In this document: piece after piece, positions 9,402 through 57,187 of the stretch | Position numbering within the stretch: position 1 is the first letter of the stretch | Layout of the letters: each line of letters starts with the position of its first letter | Assembly: GCA_963741095.1 (NCBI GenBank) | Contig: CAVUGN010000009.1 | Span: forward strand, 32,001 to 96,000 | DNA from: an uncultured Candidatus Micrarchaeota archaeon | GTDB lineage: Archaea > Micrarchaeota > Micrarchaeia > Micrarchaeales > Micrarchaeaceae | DNA: 64,000 bases | Direction: 5' to 3' | Translations under genes and position numbers: made by a program | The notes under the pieces: generated by a model | Seen by the model: the letters and a program-made list of their open reading frames with translations, nothing else | What the model was told of the DNA's origin: nothing | The model's database searches: none

Positions 9402-11606
9402 ATGATACAAACGAAAAGCAACTTCAAGGGATTCGTCTTCACCCTAGACGCGATATTCGCGCTCATAGTGGCAGTTGCAAGCATCTCCATACTGATGTAC
9501 GTGCACTTCAGCAGCACATTACTCTACACTGCACCTGCAGCCGAGGCGTCCAGCATCCTTCAGAACCTCATGCAGACAACTGTTTACTCCGCATCGCTGG
9601 GCAACGTGTACGCCAGCTACCTGTTGAATTCATGGCAAGGGAATACCTATACCTGGCCGCAGTTTGGGCATGACCAGTACCATTCGTCGAACAACAGCTA
9701 CGGGCCACAGACGGCTTCGCTGCTCTACACGTTCTCGGCACCATACCCGATCGTTCCATCTGTCGCGGTTGATCAAGGTGTTGTTGCCTTCGGCGCGGGC
9801 ACGTACCTTTACGCGCTCAACGCGACGACCGGCGCCCCGCTCAACACGTACCCGCTCATAAATGTAGGGGCGGTGCAGGTTACACCACTCATATACAAGA
9901 ACGAGATAGTCTACACCTGCCCAATCGGCTGCATAATTGCGGAAAGCATATCCAATTCGCTGTTGCAGCTATGGAGCACGGAGCTGAGCACGGACGTGTC
10001 CACACCTCTCCAGATAGAAGACGGCTACCTCGTCGCAGGCACTTCCAACAGCATATATCTTTTGTACCCGCAGAATGGCACCACCGCTGCTTCTGTCACC
10101 GTGCCGGCGGCTAGCACAGTGCAGCCACCTGTCTACATCAACGGCGAATTCATAGTGACTACCGGCAAGCCCGGCGTGCAGAACTACATCTACGCGTATG
10201 TGCTCACCGGGGGCACTCTGACAAACGTCTGGAGCTACCCGCTCAAGATCGCGCAGACCACTCAGCCAGTGGTGAACGGAAGCGTGATAGCTGTGGGCAG
10301 CGGGAGCTCACTCTACACATTTAATCTTGACGGGACTCTGATAAAGCAAAACGTTCTTCCCAACGCACAGATCGTCGGATTGGCATCATCAACCAACAAC
10401 TTCTATGTCGAGACCGTCAATGCAATCTACCGCTTCTCGCCTTCGGGCAGCACAATATTCTCATACCCGACAATAACCGACAACCAGAACTCGACGCCGT
10501 CCGTGAGCCCTCCAATATTGTACACGCTGGTGAGCGGCACCAACTATCAGGGCTACAACATCCAGGCCGGCACGAACATATGGAACGTTTCGCTCCCGTA
10601 CGCATCAGCCTACACGGGCTACTCTGCTGTTGCTCTTGCTTACGGCAACGCCTATGTGGTAAACGGCAATACGCTGTATGTCTTCGGCACACCCGAAGCG
10701 CAGCCAAGCGACAGTCTGTTGCAGACCGTTACCCGCATGTACCTGAACAACGAGAGCGCCTACTCCAATCTAATGTTGAACAAGATATACAACTCGTCGA
10801 ATGTGGGCCTCTTCATCAATGGCACCTATGCGCCAACATTAAAGACCGCAAGCTTCAACGGCGCGAACAGCCATATCAATATAGGGAAGATAAATCAGGA
10901 GACATCCAACAATCCGATATCATTTACGGTTTGGTTCTACACGGCTTCACTTACGAGTAGTTATCCGATGCCATTCGGCGACACCATCAATAGTCCACGA
11001 GACGGATATGACCTGTTTATCAGCGGGCCAGGCAGTGGGTCGAACGGCATCGTTGGCGCAGAAAGATTCTGGGGCACAGCAGGGTGTCTTTCCTGCGGTA
11101 TTGGCATAGGAACACCAAGTCCAATATCAATGAACACCATCTATTTCGCGACTTTGACCTACGACGGCAGCACATTCAAATTCTATTTGAATGGCGCTTT
11201 GGTTGGTTCGTTTGCAACGACAAACTCCATAACCCCCGATTCAATAATGAGCATCGGAGCCGCCAGCGGCTACGGATATATCTGGGACGGTAGTATTTCA
11301 AACGTCCAGATCTACAACATCGCTCTTTCCTCATCGCAGGTAGCGCAGCTCTACCAGAGTGGGCAGTACGGAATGCCGGTCAGCATGCAAAACCTCATAG
11401 GCTGGTGGCCACTCGAAGGCGATACAAACGACTACAGCGGTTACAACAACGTCGGCATACCCACTTCTGTGACCTTCCAGAGTTCGAATGCGCTTCCCGC
11501 ATCCCTCAAAAATGCGTTCCAGATAAGCAAGGCTACAACGCCGCTCAGCATCACGTCAAACGGCGTCAACAAACTCTACAACGTGAGCGTGGTGTCATGG
11601 AGATAA
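9402..11606 (+). CDS. Class III signal-peptide protein with PQQ-like beta-propeller and one LamG module
   Basis: KG-FVFTLDA N-terminus; WPQFGHD and LYALNATTG propeller motifs; C-terminal ASFNG...ISNVQIYN...GWWPL. Confidence 0.82.
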   Translation: MIQTKSNFKGFVFTLDAIFALIVAVASISILMYVHFSSTLLYTAPAAEASSILQNLMQTTVYSASLGNVYASYLLNSWQGNTYTWPQFGHDQYHSSNNSYGPQTASLLYTFSAPYPIVPSVAVDQGVVAFGAGTYLYALNATTGAPLNTYPLINVGAVQVTPLIYKNEIVYTCPIGCIIAESISNSLLQLWSTELSTDVSTPLQIEDGYLVAGTSNSIYLLYPQNGTTAASVTVPAASTVQPPVYINGEFIVTTGKPGVQNYIYAYVLTGGTLTNVWSYPLKIAQTTQPVVNGSVIAVGSGSSLYTFNLDGTLIKQNVLPNAQIVGLASSTNNFYVETVNAIYRFSPSGSTIFSYPTITDNQNSTPSVSPPILYTLVSGTNYQGYNIQAGTNIWNVSLPYASAYTGYSAVALAYGNAYVVNGNTLYVFGTPEAQPSDSLLQTVTRMYLNNESAYSNLMLNKIYNSSNVGLFINGTYAPTLKTASFNGANSHINIGKINQETSNNPISFTVWFYTASLTSSYPMPFGDTINSPRDGYDLFISGPGSGSNGIVGAERFWGTAGCLSCGIGIGTPSPISMNTIYFATLTYDGSTFKFYLNGALVGSFATTNSITPDSIMSIGAASGYGYIWDGSISNVQIYNIALSSSQVAQLYQSGQYGMPVSMQNLIGWWPLEGDTNDYSGYNNVGIPTSVTFQSSNALPASLKNAFQISKATTPLSITSNGVNKLYNVSVVSWR

Positions 11607-14600
11607 TACCCAAAAGCCGCAAGGGAATAATGCTCACGCTCGCCACTGTGGTCCTTTTCGTGCTCATGCTCGCAGAGCTCGTTACCTATGTGTCATTGAA
11701 CATAAACTACAACACAATCGTATCGAGCGCGTCTGCGGTTACTGGCGGTGCATCCGCGATTACGACCCTGAATTCTGCAGTTCCAGTATTCTTACACCAA
11801 AGTCTCCAAAATGCGCTGAGTGCACTTCTACAATACGAAGGCACGCCTACTTTAAGGAAAGACCATTTCATCAACAACACCGCTTACGCATTGCAGTCGC
11901 TCATGTACAATGGAACCATAGCCAATGGAACAAGCTCTGGATACTTCAACGGGCAGAACACCTATATCGATGTTGGGAATGCAGTAAGTCTTAACCCTAC
12001 AACTGCGATAACGATGGTTTTATGGGTAAAGCAATTTTCACAAGCTAACGGTGTGAGTTCTCAATGTTGGCAATGGCGCGCTCTCCAGAAGACATGGGTC
12101 ACCTATAAGGGATATGGTATCCAAGTTGGGTGTGCTGAGATAGATGCTTTATTTGGTAATGATATTAGCTGGCAAGAGTACCAGGGTTCCACCTACAGCT
12201 TAAACACCTGGCATCAGTTAGTAGTAACTTACCAAAATTATGGGAATACTTACGGCTATTTGGACGGAAAACTGAATTATGGACCTATACCAGTGACTAA
12301 TTTAGACCCTGGTCCAGGAGACCTACAAATTGGTGGACCATCAGCATCAGGAAACTGGTACAATGGTCTTATCTCCAACGTTCAAGTCTACAACGTCGCG
12401 CTCACGGTGAATCAAGTAGCGCAACTATATGCAGAGGGCATCAACGGTGCACCAATTATGTCTGCAAACAATGTCGGCTGGTGGCCTCTCAACAGCGATA
12501 CGCTAGACTACTCTGGTAACGGCAACAACGGCGTCCCGACAAACTTAATGTACAATAGCGTGCTTTCTTACACGAGCTTTGGTATGCTTAATTCGACATT
12601 CAGCGGCTTCATGAATCGGATGACAAATCAAATATCCAACGACGGCTTCAATGTGGTCATAACAAACGCTACTCTGAATGTTTTCCAGAACTCGCCATTC
12701 ACGATAAGTGCTAATTATACTGCGCTTGCTGTGGTCAACTCCACACGCGGTCTCTTCACATTCCCGTTAGAATCAACCACTAGCGTCTCGCTCAATGGAA
12801 CACAGAGCCTCTACGGTCTCGAAGCAGGCGACCCGTTCACAATAAAGCCGCAGCCAAACCTCCCTAAGGCGGTGCTCGTAGGCAATGTTCTTGCCATGTC
12901 CAGTAATACAGGAGCAAACTTCAACGGCGGAAGTTCATACATGACATTGCCAAACATGGCCAGTGCGGTTGTAGGTCTTTCCCAACTAACCGTTAGCGTA
13001 TGGGTGAAACCTTCCGTAGCGTTTGGCGGCAGAACAGAATTCTTAACGGATTGCGCCAACGAATTCTTCCTCGCTGCTGATGCAAATGGCAACCAGGAAG
13101 GGGACATGTGCGTGAACACTGGCGGCGCTTGGTACTGTTATGCTACCACAACCACGACAATAAACCCGAACAACTGGTACATGGTGACCGGGGTTTTCAA
13201 CGGCGTTGCGAGCACGCTCAATATCTACCTGAATGGGCAATTAGGCAACGGCGTTACCGTCACTGGTACAATAACCAACGGCGGAGGCAGTGTCACGTTG
13301 GGAGAACCCCAGTGCGACTCTAATTGGTTCTCGGGCAGCATGGCTGACGCCCAGATTTACAACACCGCGCTTTCACCGACCCAGGTCGCAAACCTGTACA
13401 ACGAGGGCATGGGCGGTTCGCCAATCCTTCCGGCGAACAACATAGGCTGGTGGCCGCTCAACGGCAATGCAAACGATTACAGTGGAAACAACAACAACGG
13501 CGCACCAACAAGCATAACCTACACAAACATGTTTTCATACGGCACTGCATATTATGCTAGCGGCACGCCCTCATGTGCATCGATACTCGCGCAATACAAG
13601 AACGCCAACTTCATACTTGTTACGCCCAGTGCGGCGAGCATAACAAGTGACATGTGTGGCATGGGTGGGCTAGTAACATACACACCTCCTTCGCCGTTGC
13701 CTACGGGGCCCTATCTCGTCTATTCAAGCTCGTCCAACGTCGTGAACGTGATAAAGGCGGGTACATCATTACTTTTGAGTGACAGGAGCGTGGGCCTTTT
13801 AAACATCTCAAACCTGCAAAGCGCAATACAGAATGGATACTCTTTCGCCTCACCTTACGTTCCATCATATCTTGACTGGGCTCAGGACAGCCTGACAAAG
13901 AGATCTACCAACGGCATGTTCTCCTTCAATTTGCTTAATCGGCAGATTGCAAGCTTCAACGGGGCAAGCAGCTATATTGATACTGGCTCTTCCGTTTCTC
14001 CAACTACTGCAATTACAGTTACATTATGGATGAATAGTGCTGGAGGCGTACAACAGAATCTGGTCACAGAAGGTCCATCTGGCACAGCATGGAGCTTCCG
14101 ATTTTGGAATATTCTTGCCGAATACATGTTTAGAGTTTCTTTAAATGGCGAATCTCCAGCCTGTGGATACACACCACCAGCGTTACTAACCTTGAATACC
14201 TGGCATCATGTTGGTTTTAGTTACGATTCATCTACTGGAATAGTACGCATATACCTAGACGGAGTCAATGTTCAAACCTGTACGGGTTTCTCAGGTAATT
14301 TGAATACGGGAAGTGATCTCTGGATAGGAAAGGGCAGCAACTACGCTTATTTCAATGGTTTCATCTCTGACGTCCAGATATACAACACTGCTCTAACACC
14401 CTCTCAGATGTCACAACTTTATCAAGAAGGTATAGATCCCATTCCAATAAGTAATGCTGGTCTCATAGGCTGGTGGCCGCTCAACGGAGACTTCAACGAT
14501 TATTCCGGGCAGAACAACAACGGCATAGCTGCAAGCGTGCCGTTCAACAGGCTGAACGACTACCAGGCGGATCCGATTTGGGGCGGATCGCTGTACAACA

Positions 14601-14788
14601 ACAATGCATTGAATTCAAACGCGCTCAATCTAACCGAAGGCGTGCTGAACTGCGGTACGCTTGCACAATGTTACAGCACGAATCTAGAGCATTTGTACCT
14701 TGCAAACCTCTCGCTCACTGGTACCTATTCTTCCGCGTCGACCGAAGCCGCGTCATTGGGTCTTGCAAACTCTATTATGCCCCCTTGA
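11597..14788 (+). CDS. Class III signal-peptide protein with three LamG modules
   Basis: Start reassigned to ATG 11597 (MEIIPKSRKG-IMLTL), overlapping the upstream stop; three LamG repeats. Confidence 0.82.
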   Translation: MEIIPKSRKGIMLTLATVVLFVLMLAELVTYVSLNINYNTIVSSASAVTGGASAITTLNSAVPVFLHQSLQNALSALLQYEGTPTLRKDHFINNTAYALQSLMYNGTIANGTSSGYFNGQNTYIDVGNAVSLNPTTAITMVLWVKQFSQANGVSSQCWQWRALQKTWVTYKGYGIQVGCAEIDALFGNDISWQEYQGSTYSLNTWHQLVVTYQNYGNTYGYLDGKLNYGPIPVTNLDPGPGDLQIGGPSASGNWYNGLISNVQVYNVALTVNQVAQLYAEGINGAPIMSANNVGWWPLNSDTLDYSGNGNNGVPTNLMYNSVLSYTSFGMLNSTFSGFMNRMTNQISNDGFNVVITNATLNVFQNSPFTISANYTALAVVNSTRGLFTFPLESTTSVSLNGTQSLYGLEAGDPFTIKPQPNLPKAVLVGNVLAMSSNTGANFNGGSSYMTLPNMASAVVGLSQLTVSVWVKPSVAFGGRTEFLTDCANEFFLAADANGNQEGDMCVNTGGAWYCYATTTTTINPNNWYMVTGVFNGVASTLNIYLNGQLGNGVTVTGTITNGGGSVTLGEPQCDSNWFSGSMADAQIYNTALSPTQVANLYNEGMGGSPILPANNIGWWPLNGNANDYSGNNNNGAPTSITYTNMFSYGTAYYASGTPSCASILAQYKNANFILVTPSAASITSDMCGMGGLVTYTPPSPLPTGPYLVYSSSSNVVNVIKAGTSLLLSDRSVGLLNISNLQSAIQNGYSFASPYVPSYLDWAQDSLTKRSTNGMFSFNLLNRQIASFNGASSYIDTGSSVSPTTAITVTLWMNSAGGVQQNLVTEGPSGTAWSFRFWNILAEYMFRVSLNGESPACGYTPPALLTLNTWHHVGFSYDSSTGIVRIYLDGVNVQTCTGFSGNLNTGSDLWIGKGSNYAYFNGFISDVQIYNTALTPSQMSQLYQEGIDPIPISNAGLIGWWPLNGDFNDYSGQNNNGIAASVPFNRLNDYQADPIWGGSLYNNNALNSNALNLTEGVLNCGTLAQCYSTNLEHLYLANLSLTGTYSSASTEAASLGLANSIMPP

Positions 14789-14820
14789 TGCGCATGTTCC
14801 TTAATCAGACCGTCTAATCT

Positions 14821-15807
14821 CTAAGCTCCGCCTATGTGGCCGAACAGGTTGCCAACCACCGAGACCATCACCAGGAAGATGGCTATGCCTATGAGCACGA
14901 AGACCGGCAGGAGCCTGATGCCCTTCATAGCCGATCCGGAGTTTATCGCTGAGACTATCAGGCTGGCGAAGGCGCATATTATCACGATGGCCGCTATCGA
15001 GAAGTCATGATAGGCTTCTACCGTTATTGTCGGCGGGCTGGGCTTCAGGAACGATATGCCCGCGGTGGGAAGGCCGCCGGGGTTCTGCGCAAGTATCCCC
15101 TTCCATACTGTGTCGGTGACGACTATCATCTGGCTCGTGAGGCCGTACAGCACCGGCGCGGCTATAAGGGCAGCGAAGAGTATGAATATGCTGTACATCA
15201 GCATCTGACCGGCTATCTCCTTCTGCATCAATTGCTGCTGGCGCATGTCCTTCGATATCTGCATCAGAAGGTCAGCAACGGCTCCTCCGTACCTCAGGGC
15301 CTCGAGAATCATCTTGACTGCATGGTTCAGCTGGTACGACCTGTACCTGGCTGCGAAGGTCCTTATGGCGGTCTCGAAGCTCTCCCCTCCGAAGACCCGC
15401 CGGTTCATCTCCTTCACATCATCGCTGAGGTAGCCGAACTCCGGCTTTGCGGCCATGAGCATGGCCCGGTCAAGGGCGACTCCGCTCCTGAGGTTCGCAG
15501 AGGTTATCTGCAGATAATCCGGCAGCATCTCCTCCAGCTTCGTTTTCCTGCCCTCTATCTGGTACTCCAGTAGCAGGTAGATCACTCCTATGTAGAGCGC
15601 TGCCGCAAGCAGGCCCGCGGCTGCATCCAGCAGCGTGTTCACCTTGAATATGAAGAGCGTGAAAGGCACGATGATGAGTATCGCCAGGGCTCCGAGTATC
15701 GCGACCCTCAGCAGATTCTCGACCGTCGTCTTTATGCCTGCAAGGTCAATCTCGTTGGATATCCTCCTCACAAGGCCTCTTGAGACGAGCCGTTCGAAGG
15801 TTATCAT
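14821..15807 (-). CDS. Type IV pilus/T2SS membrane platform protein (TadC/ArlJ family)
   Basis: LPDYLQITSANLRSG motif, multiple TM helices, downstream of the assembly ATPase. Confidence 0.9.
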   Translation of the reverse strand: MITFERLVSRGLVRRISNEIDLAGIKTTVENLLRVAILGALAILIIVPFTLFIFKVNTLLDAAAGLLAAALYIGVIYLLLEYQIEGRKTKLEEMLPDYLQITSANLRSGVALDRAMLMAAKPEFGYLSDDVKEMNRRVFGGESFETAIRTFAARYRSYQLNHAVKMILEALRYGGAVADLLMQISKDMRQQQLMQKEIAGQMLMYSIFILFAALIAAPVLYGLTSQMIVVTDTVWKGILAQNPGGLPTAGISFLKPSPPTITVEAYHDFSIAAIVIICAFASLIVSAINSGSAMKGIRLLPVFVLIGIAIFLVMVSVVGNLFGHIGGA

Positions 15808-52385: not shown

Positions 52386-52426
52386 CCGCCCATTAATAAA
52401 TATTCGGTGCGCAATACCTTATGCGT

Positions 52427-52501
52427 GGGCCTGTAGCTCAGCTTGGATAGAGCGACACCCTTCTAAGGTGAAGGTCGTGGGTTCAAATCCCACCAGGCCC
52501 G
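52427..52501 (+). tRNA. tRNA-Arg(TCT); integration target
   Basis: Acceptor GGGCCTG/CAGGCCC, anticodon loop CTTCTAA, T-arm GTGGG-TTCAAAT-CCCAC; 75 nt. Confidence 0.95.
52466..52501 (+). repeat. attL core (36 bp)
   Basis: AGGTGAAGGTCGTGGGTTCAAATCCCACCAGGCCCG, identical to 56698-56733. Confidence 0.95.
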
Positions 52502-53445
52502 GCGTATTTTACGACGACAAAGCCGGGCTCGAATCTGCCAGTCAAGCAAAAGAAGATCGTGCCAAAAGGCGGGTTCGGGGTGCGTTTTGGCCGTCTTCCA
52601 AGCATTCAGAAAGTCGGGAAAACCAGGGTTCGGGGTTGGATTTTCAGGACTTTCTGCACCAAACAGAGGATTTCAGCAACAATGTGTCAAAACACCCGTT
52701 GGAACAGATCAGAGCCATAGTTGCCAAAGTTCACACAAGACGCTTCAGACGCAGAAAAGAGCCACGTTACGGCACCATCAACAAAGGCTTCACCGAACTT
52801 GAGCTGCAACGCTTCCTAAGAAGCGTCAAGAACGACAAGTTCGGGCTTCTTTTCAAGTACCAGGCCTTCATGGGCCTTCGAGTTGGAGAAGTCAGCAAGT
52901 TGCACGTAAGCAACATCGACTTCGACAAACGAGAGCTCACAATACTTAGTGAAAAATCTTCCAAGATGGACTCTCTCATAATTCCTTTGGACTTGTTCAA
53001 AGAGACCATATCATTCATAAATCAGAACAAAGAGGCCATTGAGTCAGCGCACGGCTTCATTTTCTTCAAAGAAAACGACAACAATCACAACGAGGTTCCG
53101 CACGTAGACCTTGATTACGTCAGAAAGGTCTTCCGAGAATCTGTAGCGCGAGCCAATGTAGACCAAATCTATGCCTATTCAGAAGAGACAACCGTCGGGC
53201 ATAAAGAAAGACCATTACATCGGCTTACAACGCACAGCCTACGCCACTACGCGATAACACACTTCGCCAAGGCTACGAATGGAAATATCGTCTTATCCTC
53301 TAGGTTCGCCAGACATGCCAGTCCTTCCACAACTATGCGCTATATCGCAAAAGACAAAGAACAGCTTTACAATGAGATAGATAACGCATTCACAAACAGC
53401 AAAATCGAAGCAATAAAAGTTCTAGCTAATAGACACAGATTATAA
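52466..53445 (+). CDS. int: Tyrosine recombinase, C-terminal part int(C) of a partitioned integrase
   Basis: GLRVGE, HSLRH, RH and TTMRY catalytic residues; frame reads through the att core; no ATG between att and the catalytic domain. Confidence 0.9.
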
Positions 53446-53555
53446 TCATGCTGTCCTGCACTCTTCAAATGGCAAAACCCAAGTAATCGTCAAAAGCCGA
53501 AACTAAAAGTAAGTTATAAATATTATATAAATCACAGCACATAATAGTGATTATA

Positions 53556-54170
53556 ATGTCAGTACAAGGATCAAAAAGTGTTCCAACATCTCAGCAGGTG
53601 CGAGAAGGGATTTCCGAGGTATTTTTCACTGAAAAGACTGTAAAGAGCTCGGAGGCAGTCGCAGCAGTGCCGAAAGGCTACAGAATGGCTCGGCCCGATG
53701 AAGTTGCTTTAAACTGGAAAGAAAGTCCAGCATTTCTGAAAGCATTGTATGATCTTCCATGCGCGGTTTGGTCGGATCAAACAGGACTGACTTCTTCAGG
53801 ACCTCATAAAATAGATGAGAATGGCAAATCGGTAAAGATAACAGAAGCTGAATTTATGGCACTTGACGCTAAAGACAGAAGCTGGCATTATTCAGGAACC
53901 GGCCTTGTGGCCCTCCTCGGCTACCACTACTGGGGCGGGGGCGGGAGCTTGGACGTCAATGCGGGTGCGAGGTCTGACCTTGCTGCCCGGGTGGCTTATG
54001 TCGCCCTCGAAGAGGGCGCGCAAAAATCTGGAAACTCGAATACTGAACTAGCCTCCCTGGTTCGAGAAACTCTACCTCCGATAATTGCTGTGCTAGAGCC
54101 ATCAACGAAGCCAGAAATACTAGAGAATCTAAGAAGTCTGCTAAGAGCGGCATCAGAAACGAAGGAATAA
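53556..54170 (+). CDS. DGR target (variable) protein
   Basis: Contains the VR in frame (GLVALLGYHYWGGGGSLDVNAGARSDLAARVA); TATA-like TTATAAA near 53514 and GTGAT before ATG 53556. Confidence 0.9.
   Translation: MSVQGSKSVPTSQQVREGISEVFFTEKTVKSSEAVAAVPKGYRMARPDEVALNWKESPAFLKALYDLPCAVWSDQTGLTSSGPHKIDENGKSVKITEAEFMALDAKDRSWHYSGTGLVALLGYHYWGGGGSLDVNAGARSDLAARVAYVALEEGAQKSGNSNTELASLVRETLPPIIAVLEPSTKPEILENLRSLLRAASETKE
53901..53996 (+). repeat. DGR variable repeat (VR)
   Basis: Aligns to TR 54403-54501 with 18 substitutions (16 at TR adenines) and one 3-nt gap. Confidence 0.95.
54002..54018 (+). promoter_or_regulatory. DGR homing hairpin 3' of the VR
   Basis: CGCCCTC-GAA-GAGGGCG: 7-bp stem with GAA loop, 5 nt after the VR; absent after the TR. 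Confidence 0.85.
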
Positions 54171-54197
54171 ATATCTGATGCTGTCTTACTCTTTTTT

Positions 54198-54519
54198 ACC
54201 TAGGTTTGCATGGAGAAATCCTGCAAAACATCGCGGAAGCGATGGGTGTAAGCCTAGGAGCCACACACCCGTCTACAGTGCTAGCAACAATTAGGCATGC
54301 TAGACATGAAATTCAGCAGCGACACTGAGTAAGTATCAACTGAAATCGTGAAGCTGCGGTGCGCCACGAAAGTGGCATATAAAGTAGATGGATTAGCATT
54401 GCGGCCTTGTGGCCCTCAACGGCAACTACAACAACTGGAACAGGGACAGAAGGTTGAACGTCAATGCGGATGCGAGGTCTGACAATGCTGCTCGAATGGC
54501 TCTTGTTTACATCCTAGGT
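54198..54519 (+). ncRNA. Candidate structured DGR RNA (5' structured leader plus TR)
   Basis: GNRA-capped hairpins at 54205-54227, 54229-54244 and 54363-54376, further stems, and ACCTAGG/CCTAGGT terminal complementarity. Confidence 0.6.
54403..54501 (+). repeat. DGR template repeat (TR)
   Basis: Eight AAY triplets in the target reading frame; lies immediately upstream of the RT. Confidence 0.95.
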
Positions 54520-54536
54520 CCACATTTGGTAATCCT

Positions 54537-55666
54537 ATGGAAACCTACAGAGACCTTTACACTAAGCTTTGCTCTTATGATAACCTTGAATTGGCTTGGT
54601 TAAGAGCAAGAAAAAGAAAGACACTCAAGGAATACGTCATAGAATTCGAATCGGATTTAGACTGGAATATAAAACAGTTGAAACACGAGCTAGAAACCTT
54701 CACATATTCACCAGCTCCGCTTACTACATTCATCATAAAAGACCCAAAAACCAGAAAAATAAGCGCAGCGCATTTCAGGGACCGCATCATACACCATGCG
54801 ATATGCAACATAATAGCACCCATTTTTGAAAAGGATTTCATCTACGATTCCTTCGCCAATCAAAAACACAAGGGGACGCACATGGCAATCAAGAGACTAG
54901 AGAAATTCATGAGAAAAGTAAGTAGCAACCACAAAGCGGTGCGGGGGGGCAAAGTAAACTTTTTATCAACAAAAGCAATACCGGATACGCCCTTAAAGCC
55001 GATGTGCGTCATTATTTCGACACTGTCGATCATCAGATATTATTGTACATTGTAGAACGTAAAATAAAGGATGCTAATCTTATTTGGCTAATAAAAAAGA
55101 TACTTGAAAACCATAAAACCGTTATTGCAGGCAAAGGAATGCCGCTTGGTAACTTAACCTCGCAATTTTTTGCAAACGTCTACCTAAACGAATTTGACCA
55201 CTTCGTTAAACAGGTGCTAAAGGCAAAATATTACATCAGGTACGTAGACGATTTTATAATTCTCCATAAAGACAAGAAAGTGCTGGAAAAATGGAAAGTC
55301 GCGATAGACACATTCTTGAAAATTAACCTGAAGATAGAACTTCATCCAGAAAAATCAAGAATAGTGCCCATAGTGCGGGGCATAACCATGTTAGGATTCA
55401 GAATTTTTCATCATCACAGGCTCCTTAAGAAGAGCAACGCTCGAAGAATTTGGAAACGCTTAGAAAGATTCCAAGAAAGAACTGATACGGGCAAAATGAC
55501 CGTAGACGAAGCAGCACGAAGCATGGAAGGCTGGCTTGCGTATGCCCGCTTTGCCAATACGTATAACCTGAGAAAAAGAGTTGCTGCAAGATTTAACGCT
55601 TTATTCATAAAGAATCCTTCAGTCCTTCAAGCATATCCCGTTCGCTCTGCTCCGCAAGGCCCATAA
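54537..55666 (+). CDS. DGR-type reverse transcriptase, interrupted by a -1 frameshift near G7 (54943-54949)
   Basis: DPKTRKI, FRDRIIHHA and KGTH in the first frame; GYALKADVRHYFD, GMPLGNLTSQFFANVYL, YIRYVDDF and LGF in the second; one extra base gives a 376-aa protein. Confidence 0.93.
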
Positions 55667-55685
55667 TAAACTCGTTTCGACATGC

Positions 55686-55946
55686 TTAAGCCAACAACCT
55701 GTTAAACTCGTCCACTGACAGGTCCGCTTCCCGCATTATAGTACGCACCATCCCCTTGCCAATCGGCTTGTGGGCAGGCACTACAATCATGTTCTCGGGA
55801 TTCCTTTCTCCAAAAATAGAAGCATATCTTTCCATGTCTGCAAGCTGCATCACGATATGGCTGCCCCTCTGGTGGCTGATAATGTAGCCTGCTCTGGTCA
55901 GGGCCTTCACCACCCTGTCATAATCTATTGGTACCAGCCTAGACAC
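55686..55946 (-). CDS. hicA: HicA-family toxin
   Basis: QRGSH, VVPAH and IGKG...I...A motifs. Confidence 0.9.
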   Translation of the reverse strand: MSRLVPIDYDRVVKALTRAGYIISHQRGSHIVMQLADMERYASIFGERNPENMIVVPAHKPIGKGMVRTIMREADLSVDEFNRLLA

Positions 55947-56148
55947 TTACCTGCACCATCGCCACGGGCACAGGGTTGCCGTGTTTTTTGAGTGCTTCCA
56001 GGTATGCCTGTATCGCTTCCTTGACGTTCTTCATCAGTTCCTTGCGCGTCCTGCCTTCGGTGGCGCAGCCCGGAAGGTCAAGCACCTTTGCTACATACAT
56101 GTTGTCTTCGTCCTTTTCTATTATGACCCTGTACTTCATCCTTTCCAT
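55939..56148 (-). CDS. hicB: HicB-family antitoxin (short, no DNA-binding tail)
   Basis: Y.VIIEKDED..Y.A....LPGCATEG.T..E...N..EAI..Y. Confidence 0.92.
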   Translation of the reverse strand: MERMKYRVIIEKDEDNMYVAKVLDLPGCATEGRTRKELMKNVKEAIQAYLEALKKHGNPVPVAMVQVSV

Positions 56149-56275
56149 GGTTATATCATGGTTGTGCGGATATTAAATCTTTTCCTCGGGTCGCACATCT
56201 CTATCGCCTTGCTTTGCAAGGCTCACGAGGTGCCTCCCTAAGCCAGCAACCTGGCAGTTCAAGGAACCTTACTGC

Positions 56276-56384
56276 GCCGCTTTTTGCCCCCACTCAAAAA
56301 GCGGCCGTTTCTGATGAAACTCTTTTTCAAAGAGTTTCCGCTTGAGCCCGCCGACCGACGCCGAAGGCGTCGCTGGAGGCGGGC
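56276..56384. repeat. Cluster of perfect inverted repeats in the element's non-coding arm
   Basis: 11-bp stem 56276-56305; 10-bp stem with TTC loop 56316-56338; 7-bp stem with GAA loop 56356-56372 nested in GCCCGCC/GGCGGGC. Confidence 0.8.
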
Positions 56385-56657
56385 GAAGGCTTCTTAAGAC
56401 GAACTGTGGGCGTATGTAGGTCGTAACTTAATGGTAAGTAGCTCTCTCGATAAAATTTCGCTCCAAAAAACCTGTCGACGAAGCCGTTCTTAAGACGATT
56501 TCAAAAAATCATCTTAAGTCTCTGGCGTCATCTTTAGTTTTTTGATCGGGTCGAAATTTGTACGGAACCGCACCCGAAATGCGTATAAATCCTAAGCGCG
56601 TAGAAACATTGAAATTCGTGGTTCAATTGCGTCAAACGATCAGGGTTCGGGGTTGCC

Positions 56658-56733
56658 ATGGAAAACTCAAAAAGACGAGAGAATTTGCTTGGAAGAGAGG
56701 TGAAGGTCGTGGGTTCAAATCCCACCAGGCCCG
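56658..56733 (+). CDS. Integrase N-terminal fragment int(N)
   Basis: ATG 56658 reads MENSKRRENLLGREVKVVGSNPTRP, crossing attR in the same frame in which int(C) crosses attL. Confidence 0.75.
56698..56733 (+). repeat. attR core (36 bp)
   Basis: Exact copy of the tRNA-Arg 3' end 52466-52501. Confidence 0.95.
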
Positions 56734-56749
56734 CTGTTTCAGTGATTCC

Positions 56750-57187
56750 ATACCGGACAAAAGATTTTTCATAGGCGTAAAGGCGCTGATCACCGACTCC
56801 AAAGGCAAGTTGCTCATAATGCGTAAAGCGCCTGGGTCTACCGACAGATGGAAACCTTTCTGGGACCTTCCAGGCGGCAAGATGCAGCAAGCCGGGATAA
56901 AAGAGACGCTGCTCAAGGAGGCGAAAGAGGAACTGGGCATAAGCAACTTGAGGATAGGGCCCCTGTTCGATGTCGCGATATCCAATTTCAACATACATGA
57001 TCGCGAAGGCGCAGTCTTGGGCGGCCTGCTCTATGTCCTGTACGAATGCAAGCTACCCGCCGGTTCAAAGTTGAAGCTCAGCGAGGAGCACAGCGAGTAC
57101 AAATGGGTCAGTCCAAACGAGGCAAAAGAGCTGCTGTCCTTCATGCTGCCCAGAGATCTCCTCGAAAAATTGGCTACAAGTTTGTAG
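56750..57187 (+). CDS. NUDIX hydrolase (possible ATA start)
   Basis: WDLPGG......ETLLKEAKEELG Nudix box and LSEEHSEYKW; the ORF-track extension to 56558 crosses attR and is probably not part of the gene. Confidence 0.85.
   Translation: MPDKRFFIGVKALITDSKGKLLIMRKAPGSTDRWKPFWDLPGGKMQQAGIKETLLKEAKEELGISNLRIGPLFDVAISNFNIHDREGAVLGGLLYVLYECKLPAGSKLKLSEEHSEYKWVSPNEAKELLSFMLPRDLLEKLATSL

Follow-up and report, generated by a model that had tools for sequence, protein, structure and literature searches.

We analyzed a 64,000-nt stretch of DNA from an uncultured Candidatus Micrarchaeota archaeon (assembly GCA_963741095.1, contig CAVUGN010000009.1, positions 32,001-96,000; hereafter the window). A 4,232-bp segment of it is very probably a small integrative island inserted in the 3′ half of a tRNA-Arg(TCT) gene, with an integrase gene (int) that contains the attachment site of the circular form (attP) and splits itself into two parts, int(N) and int(C), on integration. 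This reading is carried by two results: the two ends of the island, joined in silico, give one intact integrase frame, and the same arrangement is conserved among related elements at other tRNA genes.

An island with a probable split integrase gene

The tRNA-Arg(TCT) gene is the sole tRNA gene found by ARAGORN in the window. A repeat search returned an exact 36-nt direct repeat, with one copy in this gene (attL) and the other at the far end of the island (attR); the repeat matches the tRNA's 3′ portion, which begins at the 3′ side of the anticodon stem and extends as far as the discriminator. The 4,232-bp island flanked by the repeats carries the integrase, a candidate diversity-generating retroelement (DGR) and a HicAB pair, and G+C content falls from about 55% in the flanks to 36-47% across much of the island. 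The segment thus has direct repeats of a tRNA 3′ part at both ends and an integrase adjoining one end, as is characteristic of tRNA-targeting integrative elements. The features concerned are:

52426-52503, + strand: host tRNA-Arg(TCT) gene (ARAGORN), its 3′ part supplied by attL
52466-52501: attL, exact 36-bp copy of the repeat (repeat family D2)
52468-53445, + strand: int(C), the 325-codon integrase frame that starts within attL and ends at the stop (P0001), with a PF00589 domain from about residue 106
56584-56590, + strand: TATA-like box TATAAAT, 67 nt before ATG 56658, a putative int promoter facing attR
56658-56699, + strand: int(N), ATG plus 13 codons (MENSKRRENLLGRE), in the same phase as the att codons
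56698-56733: attR, exact 36-bp copy (repeat search, identity re-checked)

The original prediction for this DNA held that the integrase frame has no ATG between attL and the catalytic domain, that it crosses attL, and that an ATG at 56658 lies in the same frame at the other end, with TATAAAT near 56584. All of this was borne out by translation. The int(C) frame reads VKVVGSNPTRPGVFYDD... from 52468 and crosses attL as VKVVGSNPTRP-GVFYDDKAG...; its first ATG is residue 134, within the catalytic domain, and TTG 52635 (residue 57) and GTG 52684 (residue 73, read by eye) are also in frame. The frame is stop-free from the catalytic domain into attL and is open further upstream, through the tRNA, to GTG 52378. 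At the right end the frame opens after a stop at 56610, and its first start codon, ATG 56658, reads MENSKRRENLLGRE-VKVVGSNPTRP across attR. When the circle was reconstructed in silico by joining 56658-56699 to 52468-53445, the ends formed, as predicted, one open reading frame (ORF) of 1,020 nt, with 339 codons and a single terminal stop, and neither half-gene carried a defect. For a single element, the probability that such an arrangement arises by chance is appreciable, as an ATG before any stop was found upstream of attR in 6/42 off-frame controls (14%), and a comparative test was therefore needed.

Comparative analysis of related elements

Among 1,361 candidates, 427 proteins were related to the integrase at E ≤ 0.001, and the few with source names were labelled Micrarchaeota, Parvarchaeota or Marsarchaeota. 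Homologs at E ≤ 1e-30 occurred in 112/401 genomes sampled from the phylum, in multiple copies in some of them; this tally includes the unpublished genome G197, on which no other result rests. DNA was obtained for 16 loci from public contigs, 30 loci from the phylum search and 40 longer stretches. We looked for exact repeats of at least 17 nt between the region upstream of int and the DNA downstream and, after dropping 18 duplicate loci, retained 22 non-duplicate loci with such repeats. The int frame was open through attL in 21/22 of them, and an ATG preceded any stop upstream of attR in 18/22 in the int phase, as compared with 4/22 and 2/22 in the other phases. One locus, L057, was dropped later as its 17-nt repeat was not tRNA-like, leaving an in-phase ATG in 17/21 elements versus 6/42 off-phase controls (Fisher p = 3.5e-7, a value that is overstated since the elements are kin). 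The exceptions were a frameshift in the leader (L076), a nonsense codon in int(N) (L085) and two tandem arrays (L058 and L060), where the repeat pairs with a further left-type junction. L076 and L085 retain the MARN... int(N) peptide of their lineage and, judging from this peptide, are apparently decayed copies of the same split layout.

In a separate test, we examined the stretch (216 nt on average) that leads from the tRNA T-arm to an anchor placed at residue 100 in the 46/67 rows with a recognizable T-arm. The int frame was stop-free in 41/46 loci, and each of the other two frames in 3/46. The elements use at least eight tRNA targets (Arg(TCT) twice, Arg(CCT) with an intron, Arg(TCG), Asn(GTT), Leu(TAG), Gln(CTG), Glu(TTC/CTC) and Ala(TGC)), and across lineages the T-loop occurs in all three phases (0, 1 and 2). 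L075, a member of the tRNA-Leu lineage, reads it in phase 2 and its MARN sisters in phase 1; the ATG of L075 is still in frame, which makes its phase shift a compensated change. A second complete example is provided by L001/L052, a 5.0-kb element (64% identical) that occupies an intron-bearing tRNA-Arg(TCT) gene. There the T-arm is read as GFKS, as opposed to GSNP in the window, the in-frame ATG at 14883 reads MQDFTSLGIYGVNSSAS-VGRGFKSRRAR-L..., and there is no ATG, GTG or TTG from att to residue 85, about 60 codons past att. The proposal that attP lies inside the integrase ORF, with partition into int(N) and int(C), is thus supported as a trait of the family, and together the tests show selection for an uninterrupted reading frame that would be contiguous only in the circular form.

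Family membership of the integrase

The integrase matches PF00589 with 47.1 bits (gathering cut-off, 27.1), 26/26 family members examined also match this domain, and R138, H256-x-x-R259, H283 and Y292 are invariant in the family alignment (HSLRHY in the window). PF16795 was matched by 0/26 family members at E ≤ 10 and by nothing in the archaeon's own genome, while the positive control, SSV1 D-335, matched it at 1.5e-61; neither PF16795 nor PF07935 was found in the window integrase. Aligned directly to SSV1 D-335, the family profile reached an hhalign probability of 0.5%, and SSV1 Int was absent from the Protein Data Bank sequence matches at E ≤ 1 as well as from the Foldseek matches listed (ranks 1-50, with gaps). 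The best sequence-profile matches were XerA 4a8e (8.3e-6) and then 5hxy, and the best fold matches were XerA 5hxy (Foldseek, 7.6e-9), IntI4 and Tn1549 Int. The NCBIfam XerA model NF040815 gave 49 bits, below its equivalog cut-off of 220. By these profile comparisons, the enzyme is best classified as an Xer-like PF00589 tyrosine recombinase outside the SSV/pTN3/pT26-2 superfamily. The suggestion that the element follows the strategy of SSV1-type and pTN3-type integrases therefore stands for the gene layout, which is shared; the enzyme is of another type. Since the enzyme belongs to a different, Xer-like family, the type I ("suicidal") layout most likely arose independently on it.

Predicted structure and consequences of the split

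An AlphaFold2 model built from a 26-sequence alignment (mean predicted local distance difference test score, pLDDT, 70) has helices at residues 59-72 and 75-93 followed by the catalytic domain. According to the model, the severed leader is probably disordered and all folded parts would stay in int(C), so that integration would remove only the promoter, the ATG and 14 codons. Since only a promoter and a short, probably disordered leader would be severed, the split is best seen, on this model, as an expression switch.

The original prediction also held that the split locks the DGR into the chromosome, which is plausible. The integrase is the only PF00589 match in the archaeon's genome (94% complete), with no helper copy in sight. 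On the other hand, transcription that reads through from the tRNA promoter, with translation initiated at TTG 52635, may allow some expression in the integrated state, and passages of a 2021 review (PMC8371274) state that elements with self-splitting integrases are not in fact irreversibly trapped.

Conserved motifs around the attachment site

The DNA on both sides of att holds a set of short repeats that resemble the T-loop of the target tRNA, and most lineages have a TTTACGACGACAA-like box directly after attL, followed by one or two more T-loop-like copies. In the window these elements are:

52502-52531: conserved box directly 3′ of att, TTTACGACGACAAAGCCGGG(C/T)TCG, read FYDDKAG(L/F) in the int frame and found after attL in most lineages
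52564-52588: arm repeat A, GCGGGTTCGGGGTG core, T-loop-like, inside the int leader (repeat family D4)
52624-52638: arm repeat B, CAGGGTTCGGGGTTG, read QGSGL with TTG 52635 as last codon (repeat family D13, exact copy of 56641-56655)
56641-56655: arm repeat C, CAGGGTTCGGGGTTG, located 2 nt ahead of the int(N) ATG (repeat family D13)

The 15-nt CAGGGTTCGGGGTTG motif has exact copies at 52624 and 56641 and a similar one at 52570; the T-loop-like repeats (GGGTTCGGGG) lie at -57, +70 and +124 relative to att; two of the three copies sit within the int leader. Among the 15/19 elements that were usable for counting, the T-loop 5-mer occurred 8.1 times per kb in the arms (39 in 4,800 nt) versus 1.8 times per kb in the interior (126 in 71,169 nt). 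In L080 and L086 the target T-arm is GGGTGCGATCC and the arm copies are GGGTGCGAAT, so that GGGTGCGAT is common to T-arm and arms and co-varies between them. The tRNA-Leu lineage scores zero with the exact T-loop 5-mer and has GGTTCAGAT arms beside a AGTTCAAAT T-arm; exact co-variation of the arm repeats with the T-arm stem was ruled out by this lineage, in which the match is in the loop and not in the stem. Every lineage displayed also has an A/T box 45-80 nt upstream of the int(N) ATG:

window: TATAAAT
tRNA-Leu and tRNA-Glu lineages: GCTTATATA
L052: TATTTAAG
L056: TATTTATAT
L078: TTAAATATA
L050: TATATAAA

An inverted repeat of the T-loop-like motif precedes the A/T box (e.g., GGTTCAGAT...ATCTGAACC), and a further copy lies between the box and the ATG. 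From their positions and recurrence, the A/T box is a putative int promoter and the T-loop-like arm repeats are putative binding sites for the integrase or a regulator. That the DNA at 52564-52588, read in another frame, gives the peptide of some homologs (see below) suggests that the leader is constrained as DNA and, as protein, would only have to remain open.

Two side observations concern rearranged attachment sites. Behind a tRNA-Lys(TTT) gene of the same genome, a mini-element of about 190 bp (L018; G000:C1:105034-108210, approximately 1470-1724, - strand) consists, in order, of the tRNA 3′ end, about 85 bp near-identical to 52502-52583, about 56 bp near-identical to 56643-56697 and a tRNA-Arg-like att. 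The fusion point is a GGGTTCGGGGTTG motif, with arm repeat A as the left and arm repeat C as the right partner of the deletion joint, and the int(N) ATG is included and reads MESSKRRENLLGRE. From its parts, this looks like a related element that integrated in tRNA-Lys and later underwent deletion of the whole interval from arm repeat A to arm repeat C. In L051 (G003:C3, attR side) and L026 (G218:C13, attL side), two different tRNA-like 3′ halves stand in tandem in the int 5′ region and read VAGSNPVMP-ATAMT.I-RVQISA.P; L051 inserted via the second and L026 via the first. These tandem halves may represent an attP with two targets or a remnant of target switching.

A model for integration and excision

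In the free circle, the promoter (TATA-like box at 56584), ATG 56658 and 14 codons would be located to one side of attP. Translated att would make up codons 15-26 of the long form and be followed by about 45 poorly conserved codons and then by the folded enzyme. Strand exchange inside the 36-bp att would carry the promoter, the ATG and the 14 codons to attR and leave a start-less and promoter-less int(C) directly behind the tRNA at attL, at which point expression would be expected to stop. Recombination between attL and attR would restore one gene of 339 codons.

A broader interpretation combines these elements, and we consider it fairly probable as a whole: self-splitting would have had a second, independent origin in a non-hot Xer-like PF00589 family, in which a dispensable, disordered leader overprints attP with its putative binding repeats, integration silences expression and leaves the fold intact, and the outward promoter at attR may drive a host gene.

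Alternative explanations

Several observations weigh against a self-splitting integrase gene. No attP circle, empty site or full-length protein was seen, and searches of IMG/VR viral contigs with the protein and the family alignment returned no relative or free-form contig. The archaeon's genome holds only the split copy and the mini-element, and in the same-genus genome G266 the contig with TatD and tRNA-Arg(TCT) ends inside att, before the site could be read. The joints 56697/52502 and 52465/56734 were not listed in the contigs of four sequencing runs, a result that is uninformative as Logan contigs at about 5x break at att. In 20 other non-duplicate loci, for which 3 kb or more of downstream sequence was available, the search returned no repeat of 17 nt or more (4/20 were without upstream DNA), and L007 and L008 (52% identical) have ordinary ATG starts with stops upstream. 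The leader is also barely conserved, with alignment conservation starting near residue 54; in the predicted model, pLDDT stays under 50 for residues 1-49 and secondary structure first appears at residue 59, so that the folded part starts right after TTG 52635, where several gene callers put the start (MDFQDFL...). Finally, a shared DNA motif seems to be read in different frames among homologs, as KRRVRGAF in the window and as KAGSGCVF in L030, P0016 and P0020; in our own frame comparison, 52564-52588 gave KAGSGCV, the peptide of these homologs at that place, in another frame. If the same motif is read in different frames, the leader may add nothing to the enzyme.

One alternative is a classical layout, with attP just upstream of an integrase gene that starts at TTG 52635 or GTG 52684, non-coding arm DNA and a coincidental ATG at attR. 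The start of the predicted fold at residue 59, just after the TTG at residue 57 chosen in several database gene calls, the poor conservation of a leader that holds repeats at the DNA level, and the off-phase ATG in 14% of controls all speak for it. We nevertheless regard this layout as unlikely, given the stop-free frame from T-arm to anchor (41/46 loci versus 3/46 for each other frame) and the in-phase ATG in 17/21 elements, across three phases and at least eight tRNA targets and including one phase change that is compensated. At the position of TTG 52635, the aligned codon is moreover start-capable in 9/60 loci only (TTG in 8, ATG in 1; TTC in 17 and GAA in 14), a Leu/Phe position that ruled out this codon as a conserved internal start, and L001 has no start codon for about 60 codons past att. 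A domesticated or decaying remnant on a fixed island, for example a substitute chromosomal Xer, is in our judgment very unlikely. Its appeal is that the gene is the only PF00589 match in a 94%-complete genome and that its nearest relatives in sequence and fold are XerA. It is at odds with the score of the XerA model (49 bits against a cut-off of 220), the location of the gene between exact 36-bp repeats at a tRNA, the patchy distribution of the family (112/401 genomes, multi-copy in some), the intactness of both half-genes and the related mini-element in tRNA-Lys of the same genome.

The original prediction had also allowed for a host-derived N-terminus, by translation in the integrated state from GTG 52378 through the tRNA. 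The frame is indeed open from 52378, and many homolog gene calls run into or through the tRNA, but the comparison lent this no support, as upstream start codons are unconserved and L001 has none in its open stretch. Sequences of tRNA genes are G+C-rich and often stop-free by chance. Transcripts of tRNA genes are processed at both ends, and 5′ and 3′ processing would remove such a start. The database call for the window integrase (P0003, 322 aa), which begins at GTG 52477 inside the tRNA gene, looks like a gene-caller artefact, and we consider a host start extremely improbable. About one third of the 120 homolog gene calls listed begin, by our reading by eye, with a translated T-arm (GSNP, GFKS or VQIP, in all three phases). 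Gene callers give the family false N-termini inside tRNA genes, a systematic artefact that the split layout explains.

Cargo and flanking host DNA

The remaining genes of the island are:

53547-54170, + strand: DGR target gene (207-codon ORF), variable region 53900-54001 (variable/template repeat families D1 and D3)
54402-54506, + strand: DGR template repeat (D1 78% identical, D3 84% identical)
54537-55666, + strand: DGR reverse transcriptase, two overlapping ORFs (54537-55055 and 55004-55666) with half of RVT_1 in each
55686-55946 and 55939-56148, - strand: HicA (PF07927) and HicB (PF15919), toxin-antitoxin pair

In our reading of the printed pair, mismatches between variable region and template repeat fall mostly at template adenines. 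The division of the reverse transcriptase may reflect a genuine frameshift, a slippery site or a shared error of assembly; a run of seven G (54943-54949) lies just 5′ of the ORF overlap, and a contig of run X1 matches 54943-55164 without differences. The two-ended elements of the integrase family range from 1.8 to 13.6 kb. The L001 element carries a GmrSD-type restriction endonuclease, a DprA-like protein and an unassigned 243-residue ORF (10817-14821), and no replication or virion genes were noticed in the two elements inspected.

Directly after attR lies a NUDIX gene (56734-57187); the stretch that separates attR from its conserved N-terminus contains no ATG, GTG or TTG. In homologs, the start lies 6-9 codons ahead of the RFF(V/I)GVKAL motif, and the frame of the window gene can be followed without a stop through attR, in the GFKS phase, as far back as TTG 56558. 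Given this lack of a start after attR and the open frame across it, the outward-facing int promoter might drive the NUDIX gene. None of 11 homologous NUDIX loci lies beside a tRNA. In G266 (L089, G266:C37), as well as in a single contig of run X4, a tRNA-Arg(CCT) gene with a 3′ half identical to att is followed directly by the DNA that begins at 57183 in the window; the 449-bp NUDIX segment is missing from this arrangement, and the archaeon's own genome has no counterpart of that tRNA. The joint of 56733 to 57183 in run X4 was ruled out as an empty site, as it matches the relative's tRNA-Arg(CCT) locus, and could result from a rearrangement between tRNA genes with a common att.

Comparison with known systems and implications

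The layout is known from the SSV-type integrases of Sulfolobales, among them SSV1 ORF D-335, in which attP also lies within the int ORF and corresponds to the 3′ part of a tRNA-Arg, and in which integration divides the gene into int(N) and int(C); record X07234 has the integration site at 1735-1778, within ORF D-335 (961-1968). SSV1 Int differs in having PF16795 and PF07935, which the window integrase lacks, and its att, at about codons 64-78, severs a folded N-terminal domain in the PF07935 region, whereas att at codons 15-26 of the window gene severs a leader predicted to be disordered. The SSV-type catalytic signature described in PMC8371274, R..KxxR..Y, likewise contrasts with the invariant H256-S-L-R259 of the Micrarchaeota family. 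The pTN3-like and pT26-2-like integrases also split themselves at tRNA genes, and pseudogenes of int(N) and of int(C), as well as target switching, are described for them in parts of PMC7253208 and PMC8371274. They belong to PF16795, in contrast to the Xer-like PF00589 enzymes of Micrarchaeota, a distinction that is drawn from published descriptions. Passages of PMC8371274 place SSV, pTN3-like and pT26-2-like integrases in one PF16795 superfamily of single origin, and the main text of that paper has zero mentions of DPANN, Micrarchaeota, Parvarchaeota or Nanoarchaeota. The sections of PMC7253208 (2020) that deal with suicidal integrases list them in Thermococcales, Archaeoglobales and five Methanosarcinales and tie their prevalence to hyperthermophiles, while the sequencing runs that hold the Micrarchaeota family are labelled soil metagenomes. 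A search outside subscription journals, with PMC8371274 covered in its main text, found no published account of such a layout on a PF00589 integrase or among DPANN archaea.

The XerA proteins (4a8e and 5hxy) are the best matches in sequence and fold and have the same R..HxxR..Y chemistry, but the window enzyme resides on an island with a tRNA-derived att and has a much shorter N-terminal domain, consisting of two predicted helices at residues 59-93. As in lambda-type integrases, repeated motifs flank the core on both sides; unlike in those systems, the repeats of the window resemble the T-loop of the core itself, two of the three lie in the int frame, no separate arm-binding domain is predicted, and binding is presumed from the motifs.

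The self-splitting layout itself is known; new here are the enzyme family that carries it, which is unrelated, the phylum and habitat, and a severed part that is much shorter. If this reading is true, a second, unrelated enzyme family has adopted the self-splitting design, which would then be convergent and no adaptation to heat. The integrase family concerned is common in a DPANN phylum whose genomes measure about 1 Mb. The family would also offer a simpler model, in which only a leader and expression signals are severed, so that the purpose of the split becomes testable; candidate purposes are a switch for integrase expression, a one-way ticket into the chromosome, and a compact int-att module.

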